From the IMG/VR virus record IMGVR_UViG_3300021400_000034, positions 179,337 to 243,336 of that record: a stretch of 64,000 nucleotides of DNA; one strand, 5' to 3'. The position numbers and the translations under genes were made by a program. Source of the stretch: a virus. Its lineage: Duplodnaviria; Caudoviricetes. The notes under the pieces are model-generated. The model saw only the letters and a list, made by a program, of their open reading frames with translations. It was not told the DNA's origin and made no database searches. Each line of letters starts with the position of its first letter. Within the stretch, counting starts at the first letter, position 1. This document shows positions 4,768-51,291 of this stretch, one piece after another.

Positions 4768-5724
4768 ATGGCATTCAGTGATTTTCTACACGATCACGAA
4801 ATGAAGAAGTCTCGGAGAGCTGAAGAGTTCGAAGTACCCGAGATCGAAGAGAACTATGAGGAAACTCCTAGAAGACCCGTACACGAGGTCGAAGAAGACG
4901 AAGTTCCGGCCGAGGATCGCAAGATCTTGAACGAAGTAGACTTCTACAAGAGCCGCCTCTATAAGAAGATCGACTCTTGCTTCCTGCGCTACGGTCTAGA
5001 AGGTCTGAAGCGCATCGACGAAGGAATCGCTAACTCGATCGCTAAGTACATCGACAGCCTGAAGGGAGGAAACCGATTTGAAGAGCGTCAGCCAGTCCGT
5101 GAGAGATACACTCCGAACTTCCGTCGTCCTCCTGATCGCGTCAGATACCGCGACGAAGAGCTTGACGAGGCTGAAGACGAGATTCCGCCTAAGCCAGCTC
5201 CTAAGCCGTTCAAGAAGCCACAGAAGATCGAAGGATCTAACCCGAATCCAGCTCCAGTCAGAAGACTTGGCGAGCCAAAGCTAGAGAGCAGCGCATTCAA
5301 TCCAGATCTTCTCAACGCTATCCTGACAGACGTCATCCCGCCTACCGAGATACACGAGGTCGAAGTCAAGAGCAACATCCCTCGTCCTGAACAGAGACAG
5401 AAGCCAGTCGAAGAGAAGGTAGATTTCGCTCCTATGCCTGAACCGGAGGTCGAAGATGTTCCTCTCGTAGAGGAACCGACTATCGAAGAATCTGTTGAAC
5501 AGCCGCAAGAACAGCCAGAGCAGACTTACGACATCGCTGACGAGATGCTCGCTGGAGTTCAGACCGAAGATGTAGATCTGTTCGTCCCGCCCGTCATCGA
5601 AGAAGACACGCCAGAGACGTTCACGTCAGAAGAAGAGCTTGACGCTCCGATCGTAGAGTCTGAGACTCAGACGCCGATCGAGATGCCAGCTCCTCAGCCA
5701 AGAAAGAGAAAGAAGAAGAAATGA
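4768..5724 (+). CDS. acidic Pro/Glu-rich late protein with capsid-targeting-like N-terminus
   Basis: TATAAATA at 4727-4734; GAGGAG SD; MAFSDFLHDHE start. Confidence 0.75.
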   Translation: MAFSDFLHDHEMKKSRRAEEFEVPEIEENYEETPRRPVHEVEEDEVPAEDRKILNEVDFYKSRLYKKIDSCFLRYGLEGLKRIDEGIANSIAKYIDSLKGGNRFEERQPVRERYTPNFRRPPDRVRYRDEELDEAEDEIPPKPAPKPFKKPQKIEGSNPNPAPVRRLGEPKLESSAFNPDLLNAILTDVIPPTEIHEVEVKSNIPRPEQRQKPVEEKVDFAPMPEPEVEDVPLVEEPTIEESVEQPQEQPEQTYDIADEMLAGVQTEDVDLFVPPVIEEDTPETFTSEEELDAPIVESETQTPIEMPAPQPRKRKKKK

Positions 5725-21487: not shown

Positions 21488-21751
21488 ATGAATATCAAAG
21501 AAGCGCTAAAGATTCTCGATGAAGCTGATGTCCAGTATGATTATGAGAATCCGAGAAAGACCTGGAGAGACTGGATTGAAGAATATGAAGATCTTCATCC
21601 AAATGGCGAAGACTATAGCTCTTTGGTCATTGATCTGGCAGACGACTGCGACGAAGACTGGAGAAGACACTACTCTGAACCTGAGCAAGCAATCGATCTG
21701 TCATACGAAGACCTCTGCAAGATGTGGGGAACACCAGAAGAGGCAGGATGA
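21488..21751 (+). CDS. acidic hypothetical protein (MNIKEALKIL N-terminus)
   Basis: AAGGAG SD. Confidence 0.75.
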   Translation: MNIKEALKILDEADVQYDYENPRKTWRDWIEEYEDLHPNGEDYSSLVIDLADDCDEDWRRHYSEPEQAIDLSYEDLCKMWGTPEEAG

Positions 21752-22146
21752 AGTTCGACGACTATGTAAAATCGATCACGGAAGCTGTAGAGGAAGTGCC
21801 TAAGATCACTTCTGGGGATCTCGGTGCAGTCGAAGACGACATTCAGGTCGCTCTAGCCGAGTCGGAGAACAAGTGGCTCTCGAAGCGCTTGTCCGACAAC
21901 GCGATCTATCTCTTCAACAACCGTCACTACATCAACGTGACCGAGCTGCGCAACGAGATCGCTCATCTGTACGCGTCTAAGGGCTTCACTGGATCCGGAT
22001 TCGACAAGCTGACCGAAGAAGAGCTCATCGTCTACAAGACGGTCAAGGAGATCTTCGTCCAGCTCATCGCTCAGTCTCTCGGTCCGCAGCTCAGCGCTAA
22101 AGAGACAGCTCAGTCACTATTCGACCGTGAGATTTTCTACGCTTAA
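21748..22146 (+). CDS. hypothetical protein with capsid-targeting-like N-terminus (MKFDDYVKSITE)
   Basis: ATGA overlap; GAGG SD. Confidence 0.75.
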   Translation: MKFDDYVKSITEAVEEVPKITSGDLGAVEDDIQVALAESENKWLSKRLSDNAIYLFNNRHYINVTELRNEIAHLYASKGFTGSGFDKLTEEELIVYKTVKEIFVQLIAQSLGPQLSAKETAQSLFDREIFYA

Positions 22147-23050: not shown

Positions 23051-25066
23051 ATGGCAGTCAACAATTCTATTTTCAACATCCCACTAAAAGTAAACAAGGA
23101 CTTCAACAAGGCTCTGTCTTCGATGATGGAGAAGTATGGAGAAGACTTCGAGATTCTCAATGGATTCGCAGAGAAGAACCTGAACTTCTCGGACTTCATT
23201 GACGCATTCACGGCAAAGAACGCAGTCACGGCAGACGTGACAATCGACGCTAACGCAAACGCATCGACTAAAGACATCAGAGCACTTCTCAACGAGAAAG
23301 ACAAGCCGCTCGACAAGATCTTCGCATTCAACAAGCTCTTCCTGGAGCTCAAGCAGAAGTACGGTCTCAAGGTCGCTCGTGAGTGGCTGGAACAGGAATA
23401 CAACGGCGGATTCTATCTGCACGACGCTTGCACTTCAACCTACATGGGCTACTGCTTCGCCTACGATCTTACCCGTCTAGCTAAGGAAGGTCTCTTCTTC
23501 CTGAAGAACTACAACAACATCCCGCCTAAGCACCTCACGACGTTCTTGGACGACGTGATCGAGTTCGTCAGCTTCATGAGCAATCGCAGCTCTGGCGCTG
23601 TCGGCATTCCTAACATTCTCGTCTGGACCTACTATTTCTGGCGCAAAGACGTGCAGCAGGGCTTCTTTACCAAAGACCCTGACAGTTATCTAAGGCAGGC
23701 CTTCCAGAAGCTCATATACCGCCTGAATCAGCCCTTTATGCGCATCGACCAGACAGCATTCGTGAACGTGTCCATCTTTGACCGTCAATACTGCGAATCT
23801 CTGTTCGGCGGTCTAGAGTTCCCAGACGGCACACTGTTCATCGACTGCGTTGATGAGTTCATCGAACACCAGAAGATCTTCATGGAAGTCGTATCTCAGA
23901 TCAGAAGCGAGAACATGTTCACGTTCCCTGTCCTCACTTACTCACTGCAGTTCAAGGACGGCAAGTTCGTCGATGAAGAGTTCGCTCGCTGGTGCTCTGA
24001 CCACAACACTGAGTGGAACGACTCTAACTTCTTCGTCTCCAAGGACGTCACTACCTTGTCTAACTGCTGTCGATTGCTATCCTCGACTACTGGATTGAAA
24101 AAAGACGGAAAGAAAGTCGTTATCGGACAGAACAACGAAAAGCTCAATGGGTTCATGAACTCCATCGGCGGAACCTCGCTCTCTATCGGATCGATCAAGG
24201 TCAACACGATTAACCTCGTGAGAATCGCTATCGAGTCTGGAATCAAGAAGGACAACAAGATCCACAGCATCAACGCTTTCCTCAAGCTGCTGAAGAAGAG
24301 AACCGAGCTCTGCTGCAAGCTTCTCGATGTCCAGCGCGAGATCATCAGAAAGAACGTCGAACGCGGACTTCTTCCGAACTACGTAGAAGGCGGAATCGAC
24401 ATCAACCATCAGTACAGCACGGTCGGCATCCTGGGACTCTACGAGACTATAAAGGAGTTCGGATTCATCGAGACAGACGAGTTCGGCAACAAGTCATACA
24501 CCAAGGAAGGAATCGATCTCGCTCAGGCGATCTTCGACACGATCAATGAAGTGAAGGACAACTTCACTCAGGACTACAGCTTCAACATCGAGTCCGTTCC
24601 TGCTGAGAGAGCTGCTGTCATTCTCTGTCAGAAGGACAACCTTCTCTATGACCGCAACGACGACTTCATCTACTCCAACCAGTGGATCCCGCTCAAAGAG
24701 AAGTGCACGATCCAGGAGAAGATCAGTCTGTCCGCGATCCTCGATCCGATGTGCTCGGGCGGCGCTATCGCTCACATCAACGTCGAGAACAAGTTCCCGT
24801 CGAATGACGTCGCTTGGGAGATGCTGAACAAGATCGCTAGCGCTGGCGTGATCTACTTCGCCTTCAACACGAAGATCAACGTCTGCAAGAATCATCACGG
24901 CTTTGTAGGCAGAGACACTTGCCCAGTCTGTGGCGAGGGCATCTATGACCGATTCACTCGAATCGTCGGCTTCCTGACTCCGACTAAGTCCTACTCTAAG
25001 GACCGCAAGAAAGAGTTCGACGCACGCAACTGGTACGACTACGCTACTCAGCTGAAAGATCTCTAA
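23051..25066 (+). CDS. nrdD: anaerobic (class III) ribonucleoside-triphosphate reductase
   Basis: YLHD, YCFAYDL, TFPV, SNCCRL, ESVPAE, CxxH..CPVC and RIVGFL glycyl-radical motif. Confidence 0.95.
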   Translation: MAVNNSIFNIPLKVNKDFNKALSSMMEKYGEDFEILNGFAEKNLNFSDFIDAFTAKNAVTADVTIDANANASTKDIRALLNEKDKPLDKIFAFNKLFLELKQKYGLKVAREWLEQEYNGGFYLHDACTSTYMGYCFAYDLTRLAKEGLFFLKNYNNIPPKHLTTFLDDVIEFVSFMSNRSSGAVGIPNILVWTYYFWRKDVQQGFFTKDPDSYLRQAFQKLIYRLNQPFMRIDQTAFVNVSIFDRQYCESLFGGLEFPDGTLFIDCVDEFIEHQKIFMEVVSQIRSENMFTFPVLTYSLQFKDGKFVDEEFARWCSDHNTEWNDSNFFVSKDVTTLSNCCRLLSSTTGLKKDGKKVVIGQNNEKLNGFMNSIGGTSLSIGSIKVNTINLVRIAIESGIKKDNKIHSINAFLKLLKKRTELCCKLLDVQREIIRKNVERGLLPNYVEGGIDINHQYSTVGILGLYETIKEFGFIETDEFGNKSYTKEGIDLAQAIFDTINEVKDNFTQDYSFNIESVPAERAAVILCQKDNLLYDRNDDFIYSNQWIPLKEKCTIQEKISLSAILDPMCSGGAIAHINVENKFPSNDVAWEMLNKIASAGVIYFAFNTKINVCKNHHGFVGRDTCPVCGEGIYDRFTRIVGFLTPTKSYSKDRKKEFDARNWYDYATQLKDL

Positions 25067-25087
25067 AATATCTTGACTGCACAAATG

Positions 25088-25118
25088 AAGAGAGGAAGAT
25101 GAAAGTCTTCCTCTCTTT
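25088..25118. terminator. terminator with GAAA tetraloop between convergent genes
   Basis: aagagaggaagat-gaaa-gtcttcctctctt. Confidence 0.85.
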
Positions 25119-25142
25119 ATGTTTAAGATTTCTCTTGATTTC

Positions 25143-25379
25143 TTACAGACCCTTGAGCAAGCGGATCAGATCCTTCTTGAACATCATCGCACGCTTGTAC
25201 TCGCTAGTGAAGCAGATCTTGTGGATCGTCTCGCAAAGATCTGCGCACTCGTCGGCGCTCATGTCGTAGATTGTTTCGAAGAGCTGATCGTAAGTGTCGT
25301 TCGTGTAAGTGTCTGCATATTCCTTGATGACCTTGAGTCCAGAGTCCTTCAAAGTCTTTATAGCTTCTTTCTCGTTCAT
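25143..25379 (-). CDS. late hypothetical protein (MNEKEAIKTLKDSGLKVIKE)
   Basis: TATAAATA on minus strand at 25397-25404; GAGGT SD. Confidence 0.75.
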   Translation of the reverse strand: MNEKEAIKTLKDSGLKVIKEYADTYTNDTYDQLFETIYDMSADECADLCETIHKICFTSEYKRAMMFKKDLIRLLKGL

Positions 25380-25405
25380 AGTGGTACCTCTCGATTTATT
25401 TATAG

Positions 25406-25458
25406 AAAAAGTCCCGTCTCCTAAAGACAAGGACCAGTTGAATTGAAGGAGACGGGAC
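25406..25458 (-). terminator. terminator of the MoxR gene with a 24-nt anti-RBS loop
   Basis: 12-bp perfect stem 25411-25422/25447-25458; U5 tract on the minus strand. Confidence 0.8.
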
Positions 25459-25482
25459 CGAAAGGTTAAGCGGCAGCTTGCG

Positions 25483-26607
25483 CTAAGCGACCTTGGCCGC
25501 GATGGTGGTCTCGTAGAAGGTCTGGAGCTCTTCGTCGGAGATGTCGTAGACCCAGTCTTCCTGAGCCATCATGTCCTGGTAGACCAGGTTGTTGATGATG
25601 GCGACCTGAGCTTCCTTGCTCATGCCTTCACGGATGAAGGCAGAGAAGTTCTTCTTCCACTTCTCGGGAACATCCTTCTTGGTGTCCTTCTTGTAAGCAG
25701 TGACGAAGATCTTAATGTCGTTCGTGAGCTTGGTAGCCGTGGCGACGTCGAAGAGATCATCATCGTTCTTCGGCTTGATGGACTTCCAGTCGCGGAGGAT
25801 GTCCTCAGCGCCAACGGCAGAGGAAGCGTTCTGGTAGAACGGAGCGTATTTGACCGCGATTGTCGGACCTACGTAGCCAGACATCATGTTGATGACGAAG
25901 GCGTTGTCAAGCTTCTTGACGTTCTTGACCTTCTCTGCGTTGTAGAGGTTGTCGGAAGCGTCGAACCAAGAGCGGCGAGAAGGAAGGACGACGAGCTCGG
26001 AGCCGTCACCAGCGCCGACATCCATAGCCTTCGCGTTAGAGAACGGATCGAGGTCGGACTTGTTCTTGGAGAGGTAGTCGATGATAGAGGGGTGTATCTT
26101 CGCAGCCTTAGCGTGAGCCATCCATTCGTTGAAGGTCGGATCCAGCCAGTAAGCAGCGTAGCGGCTCAGCTGTGCGGGGTCAGGAATTTCGCCTTCGTAG
26201 CCGTGGAATCCCGGAGGGTTAGCGGCAGCGAATACGCGAGAGCCCGGAGCGAGCTTCTTGTCAGCGATGGTCTGGTCGAGGCAGAGGCTCATAAGAGCGT
26301 TGCGGACGTCCGGGTTAGCACGGAAGACTTCGTCGAAGAAGAGCAGCACCGGTTCGTCCGGAGAGTACCAGTAAGTGGGGTTGAAGACCGTCTTGCCGTC
26401 CTTGATAGACGGAAGACCGAGGATGTCGCCCACGTCGTTGAGGTGGGTGCAGTCGAAGCAGATGACCTTGAGGCCGAGCTGTTTGCCGATCTGGCGGATG
26501 ACTTGGGTTTTACCGATACCAAACTCGCCAATGGCGAGCATTGCCTTGTGCGACGGGCAGCAGAGGGCGAGGTCGGTGAATTCGGCGATGGAGACTTTTG
26601 CGAGCAT
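25483..26607 (-). CDS. MoxR-like AAA+ ATPase
   Basis: GEFGIGKT Walker A, LLFFDE Walker B, AAANP sensor, DPAQLSR. Confidence 0.9.
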   Translation of the reverse strand: MLAKVSIAEFTDLALCCPSHKAMLAIGEFGIGKTQVIRQIGKQLGLKVICFDCTHLNDVGDILGLPSIKDGKTVFNPTYWYSPDEPVLLFFDEVFRANPDVRNALMSLCLDQTIADKKLAPGSRVFAAANPPGFHGYEGEIPDPAQLSRYAAYWLDPTFNEWMAHAKAAKIHPSIIDYLSKNKSDLDPFSNAKAMDVGAGDGSELVVLPSRRSWFDASDNLYNAEKVKNVKKLDNAFVINMMSGYVGPTIAVKYAPFYQNASSAVGAEDILRDWKSIKPKNDDDLFDVATATKLTNDIKIFVTAYKKDTKKDVPEKWKKNFSAFIREGMSKEAQVAIINNLVYQDMMAQEDWVYDISDEELQTFYETTIAAKVA

Positions 26608-26651
26608 ATTTCTGGTCCTTGTTGAAGTGGCTCTTTTTATCTTACATATAC

Positions 26652-26680
26652 AATATAAGTAAATTCAGAGAAACTCTAAA
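26652..26680 (-). promoter_or_regulatory. early-type promoter TTTAGA-N17-TATATT
   Basis: Motif match. Confidence 0.8.
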
Positions 26681-26688
26681 CCCCTAAA

Positions 26689-26928
26689 TCAAGATTTTTC
26701 TGATTTTTCTTCTACCCTGCTGAATATCGTGAGCAGATCCGAGAAGTCCTTCTTGAACTGGTCAATGCCTATACCGTACTTTTCGAGCACTGCATGACAG
26801 TTGAACCCGTACTTGTTGCTATCCTGATAGTAGATCATAGCTTTTTCGATCTCGTTGTATGAGATCAAATCGTGATATTTCCACTCAACGAATTCGTGTA
26901 TGAATTTAGCGATTTCTCTCTTGTTCAT
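26689..26928 (-). CDS. hypothetical protein, 79 aa
   Basis: GAGGT SD after the VWA stop. Confidence 0.7.
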   Translation of the reverse strand: MNKREIAKFIHEFVEWKYHDLISYNEIEKAMIYYQDSNKYGFNCHAVLEKYGIGIDQFKKDFSDLLTIFSRVEEKSEKS

Positions 26929-26937
26929 GTTTACCTC

Positions 26938-28503
26938 TTAGTCGTCCCAGACATGAGTGAGTTCCTGAATCGAAGCGTGATGCCTGACGAACTGCGGCAC
27001 CGAGTATTCCTTCTCCGAAGAGATGATGAATATCGGAGTGGGCGTGAGGTTGTTCTCCTTCCAGTCCCAGTAGCAGTCCGTGAAGATCACGACGCCGTCG
27101 TAGTGCTTGTTGTGCTGTTTGAGCCATTCACCGATGCAGGCAGGATCGGTACCTCCGCGACCCGGAGCTTCGATCTTCTGGATGTTCTTGGTGAGCTTCT
27201 TCGGCTCGACCATCTGAGCGTCCCAGAATGCCAGATCGATCTCGGTCTTCTTGTAGAAGTTGTGGAGGATAGCGCAGCCCTTCTCGATGTCGGACTGGCT
27301 CATGGATCCACTAGAGTCGATCGCGAAGAGCATGCGAGTCTTGCGGTCGGTTCGATAGCCAGGCAGGTATTCGTAGCGCTTGTTTACGCGGAGACGAGTG
27401 GAGATGCGCTTGCGAGAGCGGACCGTAGCGCCGAAGCCAGCGATGATCGGGACGATGTTGACCTTGCGCTTGTTCTGGAGCAAGATCTCTTCGACCTGAT
27501 TGCCGCTGAGCTTGCCCCAGCCAGTGATCTTGCACTTGTTCTCCACGACGTCGCGGATCATCTCGTCTACGATATTGTTTTGGCCCCACTCTTCTGTGTT
27601 TTCTTCGCCTGACTGGTTCCAGTCGTCGAACTTCTCTTTTCCAGATCCGCTATTCGAGTCTTCAGAGTCAGATTCTCCACTGCCAGTTCCAGGCCGATGT
27701 TGAGCATCTCCATCACCACTGCCTTCGCCTTCGGAGTCAGACTGTTGATCTCCTCTGAGACCTTCAGAAGATCCTTCTGAGTCAGCGTCGTCCCCGCTGC
27801 CGTCTTGATCTTGGTCTTCTTGGCTTTCACCTTCTCCTTGACCTTGATCTTCTTGATCCTCGTCGCCTTCGCCGGAGTCTCCGCTTTCGCGATTATCGTT
27901 TTCGTCTTTGCCATTGTCGGCTCCTTTGTCCTTCTTGGACTTTGTTTGTTGAGACTGTTGACCTTCGCCGTCTTGGCTCTGGCCGTTCTGTTGAGATTGT
28001 TGCTGCTGTTCCTGATTCTGGTTCAGCATGTCGTAGACAGCTTCGTAGTAGAAGTCGTCCTTGTCGATTTTCTTGCCGATCTCGTCCTCGATGGTGATCT
28101 TGGACCAGACGGCCTTGCGTACGTATTCAGCGACGTCGCTCGGAGCGCTGCTGAGGAAGAACTGGAGTTCCTTAGAGTTGCAGACAGCGGTAGAGGCCTT
28201 GTAAGCGTTCGGGCCCTGAAGTTCGCGGTGCGTGCAGTGATGAAGAATGAAGCGGTAGAGCTCGATGGCCATGATGAAGACGAAGACGGACTTGTCGATA
28301 GAGCAGACCCATTCCTCGTTGTATTCGAGGTAAGGAGTTACGTCGGTCTTGACGCAGATTCTCATGGACTGGATGTTGTTGTTGACGCGCTTCGTGAAGA
28401 GAGCATAGAACGAGAGCAGGTTCGGGATGTAGAGCCCGAAGTAGTCCACCGCGTTGGTGAACTTGTTCTCGATAGCTTCTTTTGTGACTTCTATGGAGTT
28501 CAT
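26938..28503 (-). CDS. DUF2201-type protein: degenerate metallopeptidase-like N-domain, acidic linker, VWA domain
   Basis: AIDSSGSMS MIDAS, GRGGTD, VIFTD; IELYRFILHH in place of HExxH. Confidence 0.85.
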   Translation of the reverse strand: MNSIEVTKEAIENKFTNAVDYFGLYIPNLLSFYALFTKRVNNNIQSMRICVKTDVTPYLEYNEEWVCSIDKSVFVFIMAIELYRFILHHCTHRELQGPNAYKASTAVCNSKELQFFLSSAPSDVAEYVRKAVWSKITIEDEIGKKIDKDDFYYEAVYDMLNQNQEQQQQSQQNGQSQDGEGQQSQQTKSKKDKGADNGKDENDNRESGDSGEGDEDQEDQGQGEGESQEDQDQDGSGDDADSEGSSEGLRGDQQSDSEGEGSGDGDAQHRPGTGSGESDSEDSNSGSGKEKFDDWNQSGEENTEEWGQNNIVDEMIRDVVENKCKITGWGKLSGNQVEEILLQNKRKVNIVPIIAGFGATVRSRKRISTRLRVNKRYEYLPGYRTDRKTRMLFAIDSSGSMSQSDIEKGCAILHNFYKKTEIDLAFWDAQMVEPKKLTKNIQKIEAPGRGGTDPACIGEWLKQHNKHYDGVVIFTDCYWDWKENNLTPTPIFIISSEKEYSVPQFVRHHASIQELTHVWDD

Positions 28504-28532
28504 CGGCTGGTCCTTGATGAGTTAACATATAC

Positions 28533-28623
28533 AATATAAGAACTTCTCGGAGAAATCTAAACCCCTAAAATGAGAAAAATCTCAACTTTTTCTATTTAGA
28601 TTTTCACAAAATTTACCTATATT
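28533..28623. promoter_or_regulatory. back-to-back early promoters (minus 28533-28561; plus 28595-28623)
   Basis: Both TTTAGA-N17-TATATT followed by gtatatgt. Confidence 0.8.
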
Positions 28624-28655
28624 GTATATGTAGAACCAGCTAACAAGGACCAGAT

Positions 28656-29255
28656 ATGTTAGACAACCGCAAGATCTATCCCCGCTCGAAAGTCGCCCTT
28701 CTCAAGGTCGCCAACCCAGATCTAGCTCCGCTGTGGGGTCTCATTCAGGGCAAGATCACCTCCTCACACTACGCTTCGATCGTCTTCCAGGAACAGAAGG
28801 CCCTGGACCGTCGCGGCATCGGCGGCTTCTTCACCGAGCACAAGTTCGTGAACATCCTCTATCTCTCGGACAAGTACTTGGACGCTGGCACGAACACTCT
28901 CAAGTTCGACACCGACGAGGATCTCGCTATATTCATTCACGAGTGCTCCCACTTCCTGCACCTGTCCTCGAACGGCGGCAAGTTCCTCATGAGGGACGTC
29001 GGAGATCTGCCTCCGCTCAGCGCTGCGAGTCGTCCTACCCCGAAGCAGCGCTACTGGGCTGAGCGCGAAGCTTGGTTCCGCTCCTTGGGTCTCAACCGCT
29101 GCTTCCATCTCGGTCTCGAAGACGCTATAAATACCGCTAACGCGAAGAACATGCTCGCCGTCGAGGTCAGCATGGGACTCCGCAAGGGAAAGCTCGAAGA
29201 TCTCAAGAAGGAAGCTCGGTCGATGAAGATCACCGACTTCGTCCTCAAAGACTAG
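28656..29255 (+). CDS. HExxH zincin-like protein
   Basis: FIHECSHFLH plus downstream EREAW. Confidence 0.65.
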   Translation: MLDNRKIYPRSKVALLKVANPDLAPLWGLIQGKITSSHYASIVFQEQKALDRRGIGGFFTEHKFVNILYLSDKYLDAGTNTLKFDTDEDLAIFIHECSHFLHLSSNGGKFLMRDVGDLPPLSAASRPTPKQRYWAEREAWFRSLGLNRCFHLGLEDAINTANAKNMLAVEVSMGLRKGKLEDLKKEARSMKITDFVLKD

Positions 29256-50711: not shown

Positions 50712-50721
50712 GGAGGACCAG

Positions 50722-51291
50722 ATGGAGTACGACTACAATCAGTACGTGTGGCACGCTATCCAGCGCACTAAGGAACACGATCCCGAGTACTTCAAGAAGT
50801 GCATCGAACAGCGGCTCTGCGACGGAAAAGGCAGCGTGACCGACTATGTCCACGCAGAAGATCTCGAACGTGCTCTGATGCACGTATCTTGGTACAAGTA
50901 TGACCATCCCGCAGTAGCGCCTGGATGTCGAGCATTCAAGACTGGAGCTATTCGTGGTTGGCTCGGAATGGCTCCTCTGAAAGAGATTGATCAAAATCTC
51001 ACGTGCACGATGATGGACGTGAAGGGAACTGGAACTCTGTCTCTCGTTCTCACCGATCCTCTAGCATTTATCAAGCGCTGGTTCGTAGACTACACAGTCA
51101 TTATCATCGGAGATGACGGCTATGGCGCTTGCATGTTCACTTTCCATCCTGGAGATCCTCTACCTCCGAGCACTCTATCTTCTGACGGAAGCAACGAGCT
51201 AGGACTAAAAGAAGGCGACAGGCTAACTGTCGGAAAGGCGCTTGAGCTAGGCTTCGTTCACGCAAAGCTTCAAGGAGCAAACGATGAGTAG
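50722..51291 (+). CDS. conserved phage hypothetical protein (FTFHPGDP motif)
   Basis: AGGAGG SD. Confidence 0.75.
   Translation: MEYDYNQYVWHAIQRTKEHDPEYFKKCIEQRLCDGKGSVTDYVHAEDLERALMHVSWYKYDHPAVAPGCRAFKTGAIRGWLGMAPLKEIDQNLTCTMMDVKGTGTLSLVLTDPLAFIKRWFVDYTVIIIGDDGYGACMFTFHPGDPLPPSTLSSDGSNELGLKEGDRLTVGKALELGFVHAKLQGANDE

Follow-up and report, generated by a model that had tools for sequence, protein, structure and literature searches.

The terminator loop, rich in C and U, of the Helicobacter pylori small RNA (sRNA) RepG is an antisense seed that represses via a purine-rich stretch of an mRNA leader (PMC8295292), and in the Listeria monocytogenes sRNAs LhrC1-5, CU-rich hairpin-loop motifs, that of the terminator loop included, pair with Shine-Dalgarno (SD) sequences and block translation (PMC4132741). 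Anti-SD motifs are also found in 3' untranslated regions (UTRs): that of the Staphylococcus aureus icaR mRNA shows complementarity to the SD in the same mRNA's 5' UTR and acts in cis (PMC3868564), and a cis-acting 3'-UTR anti-SD motif is likewise known from hbs of Bacillus subtilis (PMC5737220). In phages P1 and P7, the c4 antisense RNA displays segments in loops that pair around the ribosome-binding site (RBS), blocking translation (PMC12197685). Here we describe a hairpin, T1, downstream of a moxR-like gene in the final 64 kb (the window; positions 179,337 to 243,336) of the 243,336-bp IMG/VR phage record IMGVR_UViG_3300021400_000034, a record with direct terminal repeats. Its large loop is complementary to the RBSs of moxR, of a neighboring VWA-like gene, and of a divergent gene with an HExxH motif, and a second hairpin, T2, displays the same core elsewhere in the genome. 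Judged from sequence comparison, the antisense design is real, selected, co-varying, aimed at a whole leader class, present twice, and separable from termination. The hairpin and the leaders that it matches are as follows.

25411..25458, (-): T1, the moxR 3'-UTR hairpin, with a G+C-rich 12-bp stem and a 24-nucleotide (nt) loop; kept by relatives with compensating stem changes
25411-25422 and 25447-25458: 5' arm and 3' arm of the T1 stem, as read on the + strand
25423-25446: T1 loop, UCAAUUCAACUGGUCCUUGUCUUU as minus-strand RNA
25427..25437, (-): anti-RBS core of the T1 loop, CUGGUCCUUGU as RNA; UGGUCCUU is invariant in 11 lineages
25406..25410, (-): U-run of T1 (UUUUU), an A-run on the + strand; T1 is an intrinsic terminator in this genome
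26612..26622, (-): moxR leader and RBS, ACAAGGACCAG, 11/11 complementary to the T1 loop
28507..28516, (-): VWA leader and RBS, CAAGGACCAG, complementary to the T1 loop over 10 nt
28643..28653, (+): HExxH-gene leader and RBS, ACAAGGACCAG, 11/11 complementary to the T1 loop, on another transcript
50714..50721, (+): AGGACCAG in the RBS of the gene at 50722

A preliminary description of this locus had reported a 12-bp stem, an oversized 24-nt loop, and a U-run after moxR, together with exact complementarity of the loop to the SD regions of moxR and the HExxH gene (11/11 each) and to 10 nt at the VWA gene. Every coordinate and sequence of the hairpin was confirmed, the complementarities hold in the sequence, and the further match that it had listed at gene 50722 was recovered as well.

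T1 folds at -36.9 kcal/mol in a 106-nt context (z = -4.1), and its loop is predicted to be open, at an opening cost of 1.5 kcal/mol. The 12-bp stem and UUUUU, 24 nt past the moxR stop, are those of an intrinsic terminator, but the loop is not, since terminator loops typically span 3-8 nt and these span 23-28 nt in ten lineages of related phages. A terminator scan limited to loops of 3-8 nt does not report the 12-bp hairpin. The same scan instead gives an alternative 8-pair hairpin with G-U pairs (25413-25431, -) that pairs the 3' half of the loop (CUUGUCUU) with the 3' arm; it would mask part of the anti-RBS motif and is far weaker than the 12-bp stem. We rejected the idea that the loop is a degenerate duplicate of the 5' arm or part of this alternative hairpin, as lineages E, G, and I alter the arm and leave the loop unchanged. 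Also rejected was an anti-RBS role toward the gene downstream of T1, whose RBS is mismatched and which is missing in most lineages. No Rfam covariance model (c4, RF01695, included) matched at E ≤ 1 in 25000-29000.

The window has four copies of the 10-mer CAAGGACCAG (25428 +, 26612 -, 28507 -, and 28644 +) and the whole 243,336 bp has five, versus ∼0.5 copies expected, an enrichment that exceeds chance. Four of the five copies are RBSs located 4-6 nt before the starts of moxR, the VWA gene, the HExxH gene, and a gene at genome position 20766, and all four sit behind one promoter cassette (GGGTTTAGA, 17 nt, TATATT, then GTATATG). The fifth is the T1 loop, oriented opposite to local transcription. 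Three promoters of this type lie at the locus.

26645..26680, (-): sigma70-like promoter of moxR (cassette 26645-26684), with TTTAGA, 17 nt, TATATT, then GTATATG
28533..28561, (-): sigma70-like promoter of the VWA gene (cassette 28526-28565)
28595..28630, (+): divergent sigma70-like promoter of the HExxH gene (cassette 28591-28630)

The 11-mer is the sharpest form of a wider tag, (t)tCAACAA(A)AGGACCa, that stands 3-6 nt before the ATG in about 25-30 genes genome-wide. All intergenic copies of AAGGACC are RBSs except four, two of which are the T1 and T2 loops, antisense to local transcription; the other two could not be assigned clearly. The distance from the leader motif to the ATG is kept and that to the promoter varies (10-24 nt). 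Based on this spacing, the motif belongs to translation, and a DNA operator, tried as a candidate, is unlikely. About a dozen near-identical promoter-leader cassettes genome-wide consist of GGGTTTAGA, 17 nt, TATATTGTATATG, a short A-rich leader, and then CAACAAGGACCA. The leader core ACAAGGA also fits the CsrA-binding consensus ACARGGA.

Relatives were gathered via the MoxR protein from IMG/VR, JGI metagenomes, ENA, and Logan and comprise 11 lineages, of which D, E, F, H, and I are represented by fragments. A blastn search of GenBank phages returned no match, and scanning viral contigs for exact matches to the loop and 3' arm together found only relatives already collected. The lineages, with MoxR identity to the window, are listed here.

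Lineage A: the window, reference for MoxR identity
Lineage A1: L006, 93%
Lineage A2: L036, 88%
Lineage B: L007 (= G001), 81%
Lineage C: L010 (= G002), 80%
Lineage G: L100, 74%
Lineage I: L103, 70%
Lineage D: L029, 69%
Lineage E: L042 / L104, 67%
Lineage H: L101, 60%
Lineage F: L012 / L013, 57%

Ten lineages have a hairpin after the moxR stop with a stem of 11-15 bp and a loop of 23-28 nt. There are at least seven distinct T1 stem sequences, every one perfectly paired, including a change from G-U-C-U-C-C to G-C-C-U-C-C that is matched in the 3' arm, a U-A to A-U swap in lineage E (GGUCCC...GGGACC to GGACCC...GGGUCC), and an unrelated stem, GCCCCACCUCC, in lineage G. Stems were called per sequence and anchored on the core; a MAFFT and RNAalifold analysis of the T1 hairpins was set aside because arms and core fell out of register between clades and compensatory pairs were undercounted. 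The loop flanks vary, and UGGUCCUU is identical in 11/11 lineages; on this comparison, the loop core is clearly under purifying selection. Anti-SD-like 8-mers placed hundreds of nt downstream repress via RBS pairing in B. subtilis and are generally depleted from its genes (PMC12697547), and against that depletion it is notable that an anti-RBS motif is conserved at the end of an operon. Two outgroups (L102 and L105; MoxR 46-47%) have no VWA neighbor, no AAGGACC in the moxR leader, and no motif after moxR.

The motif also appears to be separable from the terminator that carries it. In L006, lineages C, D, and F, and L045, T1 is followed within a few bases by a canonical terminator, which is often bidirectional, and the U-run after T1 is weak or interrupted in L036 and lineages D, F, and I. 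In lineage H the big stem is gone, and UCCUGGUCCUU, which is also the loop sequence of T2, lies immediately upstream of a canonical terminator, in a stretch with weak structure. Since the module is kept alongside canonical terminators, and without the big stem in lineage H, the conserved object is the displayed motif and not the terminator. Two further features of these regions were seen. L006, the closest relative, has a tandem duplication (cttagcgcaagcttcc, twice) at 5126-5160, between the moxR stop and T1. In lineage F (L012 / L013, from about 5148 downward on the minus strand of the locus), a 380-codon open reading frame (ORF), with its GTG start just past the loop complement, covers the whole of moxR in antisense; it is absent elsewhere among the lineages and is probably a codon-usage artifact.

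Beyond the invariant core, the loops vary together with the leaders of their own lineages. The loop complement is ACAAGGACCAG in lineages A-C, AAACAAGGACCAT in G, AACAAAGGACCA(T/A), beginning AACAAAGGACC.., in E and I, and AACAAAAGGACCAA in D and F. Leaders of the same lineage bear the same variants, and every lineage has 8-16 nt of contiguous Watson-Crick complementarity. The loop of lineage F is complementary to 16 nt of the VWA leader, 13 nt of the HExxH leader, and 9 nt of the moxR leader, and, allowing for a 2-nt bulge, nearly all of its 23 nt are antisense to the VWA 5' UTR, counted from the predicted start of that UTR. Matches reach 13 nt at the moxR leader in lineage I (where the leader has CAAAGG), 12 nt at the HExxH leader, the best match, in lineage B, and 11-12 nt at all three leaders in lineage G. 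The mean best match of a loop to its own leaders was 11.5 nt versus 9.95 nt when permuted, and 14 of 20,000 permutations did as well (P of about 0.0007, uncorrected for phylogeny).

A genome-wide scan yielded 78 terminator-like hairpin candidates, two of which, T1 and T2, carry GGTCC in the loop; their stems are among the longest. Apart from these two, a permissive search for more hairpins around GGTCCT gave only noise. T2 lies outside the window, 183 kb from T1, and both hairpins are followed directly by TATAAATA boxes.

Genome 21750-21782 (L001 2497-2529), (+): T2, with an 11-bp stem unrelated to that of T1, loop UCCUGGUCCUU, and a U-run
Genome 21793-21800, (+): TATAAATA box directly after T2
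25397..25404, (-): TATAAATA box directly 3' of T1, ahead of a gene for 78 amino acids

T2 closes a three-gene operon headed by the CAAGGACCAG leader at genome 20754, the sole such leader outside the moxR/VWA/HExxH cluster. It is kept in G001 and G002, with a compensatory change in G001 (a G-C pair to A-U; loop UUCUGGUCCUU). The operon that T2 closes has, in G002, a first leader without AAGGACC and a second with AAGGAAG only, which argues against T2 acting on its own transcript alone. The TATAAATA boxes match the T4-type late-promoter consensus, suggesting that both hairpins end early units and that each divides an early unit from a late one.

Other hairpins and promoter-like elements were noted around T2. 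Upstream of it (genome 21680-21750; L001 about 2427-2497) are a TGtTATATT box, resembling an extended -10, and a 10-bp hairpin with the loop CCACCU. In G001 and G002 this spot is occupied by a gene for 122 amino acids with its own TATATT box, and by a different hairpin with the loop UUCUUUGGUCAUUU. The TGtTATATT box may be the leftover promoter of the 122-amino-acid gene; given the box, T2 might also arise as a short independent RNA of ∼70 nt. Another strong terminator is present in G001 (record of L007) at 235921 (-) and in G002 (record of L010) at 118724 (+), with 11-12-bp stems that differ in sequence and an 11-nt loop, UCACCUCCU(A/U)(U/C). UCACCUCCU is the canonical 16S anti-SD sequence. 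No counterpart of this anti-SD-loop terminator was found in the window's genome.

These results change the picture given by the preliminary description, which had assigned the element to the moxR terminator and its targets to a MoxR/VWA/peptidase regulon. Those leaders do match, but they are not a private set, as the leader core AAGGACCA is common to ∼25 early leaders genome-wide. A second such hairpin exists, and the element need not be the terminator, as the motif survives without the big stem in one lineage. The same description had suggested looking for conservation in related phages, where the loop is kept and follows the RBS leaders, and for further leaders genome-wide, which turned up the fourth CAAGGACCAG leader (genome 20754) and the roughly 25-30 tagged genes. 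Its interpretation is partly supported.

Net pairing energies (duplex plus opening of both partners) for the three window leaders range from -11.6 to -15 kcal/mol, compared with ∼-5 kcal/mol for the generic 16S anti-SD tail on AAGGA. In a genome-wide duplex ranking, AAGGACCAG leaders came out on top, but the background was high because any pyrimidine-rich loop pairs with purine-rich RBSs, and we did not use this result as evidence.

How the matched leaders relate to the transcripts that end in T1 can be seen from the gene order.

26938..28503, (-): VWA-like gene (DUF2201), 521 amino acids; the sole Pfam match is DUF2201 (VWA-like)
26689..26928, (-): ORF of 79 amino acids (p79) between the VWA gene and moxR
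25483..26607, (-): moxR-like AAA+ ATPase gene, 374 amino acids; Pfam AAA_5 and bpMoxR, PHROG ATPase
25143..25379, (-): gene of 78 amino acids 3' of T1, present in only some lineages; its RBS, GAGAGGUAC, has no complementarity to the loop
28656..29255, (+): divergent gene of 199 amino acids with an HECSH motif (the HExxH gene)
23051-25066, (+): nrdD, convergent from the other side

The moxR promoter, leader, coding sequence, and T1 are contiguous with no terminator in between, so leader and loop share a transcript, as in icaR. Terminator scans detected no strong terminator between the VWA promoter and T1, and VWA transcripts therefore probably also finish at T1. The HExxH leader is on another transcript, and its pairing would need to be in trans. 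The best PHROG for the VWA-like protein, phrog_1314, is labeled "HNH endonuclease," which, beside the DUF2201 match, looks like annotation carry-over.

We give roughly even chances to the proposal that T1 and T2 form an anti-RBS module in the 3' UTR, by which the early leader class is repressed in trans and perhaps in cis as well. On early transcripts, each would hold out an unpaired, pyrimidine-rich UGGUCCUU with lineage-specific extensions on a stable hairpin. The displayed motif would pair with the shared leader core AAGGACCA, including the SD sequence AAGGA 4-7 nt before the start codon, in ∼25 target genes predicted to be transcribed from the phage's sigma70-like (early) promoter cassette. 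Such pairing would cover the RBS, keep 30S subunits off, and lower early translation. The acting RNA in trans could be either the entire mRNA or a 3'-terminal hairpin fragment left as a stable decay product; in cis, 5'-3' pairing within the VWA-moxR transcript is a possible, nonexclusive route. Trans action is favored by the strong match to the HExxH leader, on a divergent transcript, and by the retention of T2 in G002. We infer that the RNAs would meet, that their pairing would repress, that it would be timed, and that the 3' fragment would accumulate.

Several points weigh against this proposal. Host and phage are uncultured. The early transcripts themselves make both hairpins, so that a timed "shut-off" requires the extra assumption of an accumulating stable fragment. 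The permutation test ignores phylogeny, and the lineages are related. Independent co-variation events are few, namely, A-run length and the core-adjacent base, and that base agrees with the leaders of its own lineage in 16 of 29 cases (counted by eye) and mismatches the moxR leader in lineages B, C, and G. The loop is pyrimidine-rich, and shuffled loops reach -16 kcal/mol on ∼12 genes versus 23 for the real loop. GGACC/GGTCC is, moreover, nearly palindromic, which makes an orientation-free reading at the DNA level conceivable.

Among the alternatives, the loop might bind only its own VWA-p79-moxR leader or leaders, in the manner of icaR and hbs, and control a translation burst or decay with no class-wide role in trans. 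In all lineages, 8-13 nt of the moxR leader are complementary to the loop, the stretch from the VWA promoter to T1 is without a strong terminator, long-range anti-SD pairing works in B. subtilis in vivo (PMC12697547), and icaR provides a precedent (PMC3868564). We nevertheless regard action restricted to cis as rather unlikely, because the best match in lineage B is the HExxH leader, on a different transcript, the HExxH leader in lineage F (13 nt) exceeds moxR's own (9 nt), and T2 is kept in G002, where its own operon lacks a matching leader. It is likewise unlikely, in our view, that the loop is a protein-binding site or its duplex a DNA-level site (an operator or a GGWCC-containing site), with RBS complementarity as a by-product. 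The loop extensions shift together with the leaders, behavior not expected of a fixed protein site; a binder of single-stranded RNA cannot recognize both a motif and its complement; and the leader motif, 4-7 nt from the ATG versus 10-24 nt from the promoter, has a position suited to translation and not to an operator. This is despite the invariant 8-nt core amid a variable loop, which would also suit a protein, the near palindrome GGACC, and the caution provided by the terminator loops of SdsR, RseX, and ArrS, which regulate "likely without base-pairing" (PMC11979758).

A third alternative is that the loop is a relic with no function now, an inverted leader copy, decayed or gene converted, that was once an RBS on the plus strand; the preliminary description had named the remnant RBS of a deleted plus-strand gene as an explanation that would undo its own. 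The loop complement in lineages D-F does resemble an entire leader from the first bases onward (GTAAAAC...AAGGACC), which would be expected of an inverted copy, and TTG follows the motif on the plus strand. However, no ORF is conserved after the loop complement: TTG-AAT-TGA in the window amounts to 2 codons, and most relatives have 0-41, so a plus-strand RBS or small ORF in the loop was rejected. The core is invariant while stems and flanks have diverged, the second hairpin has the same core on another stem, and repeated conversion would need longer homology than the 11-16 nt present. We consider a relic very improbable.

If the anti-RBS module exists, it would account for the retention of an oversized loop on a terminator and for the bases around the SD sequence (CAACAAGGACCA) that ∼25 early leaders share and that do not pair with the generic 16S tail. 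An address tag and an anti-tag hairpin would make a compact, portable pair of parts, and oversized phage terminator loops would merit systematic comparison with their own leaders.

In phage T4, early mRNAs are shut off through their ribosome-binding regions by the proteins RegA and RegB. The proposed module resembles them in down-regulating early messages posttranscriptionally and as a class and differs in being RNA rather than protein; RegA and RegB had no Pfam match in this genome, in a search made without a positive control. More tentatively, with the odds somewhat against it, these T4-like rumen phages may rely on an RNA device, in place of or alongside proteins of the RegA/RegB type, in which stable 3' hairpins of early operons accumulate, titrate leaders bearing the AAGGACCA "address," and so time the switch from early to late translation. 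Such a class-wide early-gene RNA switch is absent from a 2025 review of phage-derived sRNAs, which mentions c4 (PMC12197685), and from our literature searches.

Each of the systems closest to T1 shares part of this design. RepG, like T1, has an intrinsic-terminator loop complementary to an mRNA leader, but it is a free-standing sRNA gene whose target is the G-repeat of one operon, whereas T1 belongs to the 3' UTR of an early, protein-coding operon in a lytic phage, and its loop matches an RBS tag common to a gene class. The LhrC sRNAs share with T1 and T2 their redundant copies and an SD-directed terminator loop; unlike T1, they are bacterial stress sRNAs with a UCCC motif and are neither 3'-UTR borne nor phage derived. 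The icaR 3' UTR likewise has an anti-SD motif that matches the SD in the 5' UTR of the same transcript, but it acts in cis on a single mRNA, while the T1 motif also matches leaders of other transcripts and recurs at the end of a second operon. Closest in being a phage RNA that shows RBS-pairing segments in loops, c4 comes from temperate phages, where it is a processed immunity RNA and has a single target (ant). Antisense terminator loops and 5'-3' pairing were already known; the combination proposed here, a 3'-UTR loop of a phage set against a class of RBSs, appears to be new.

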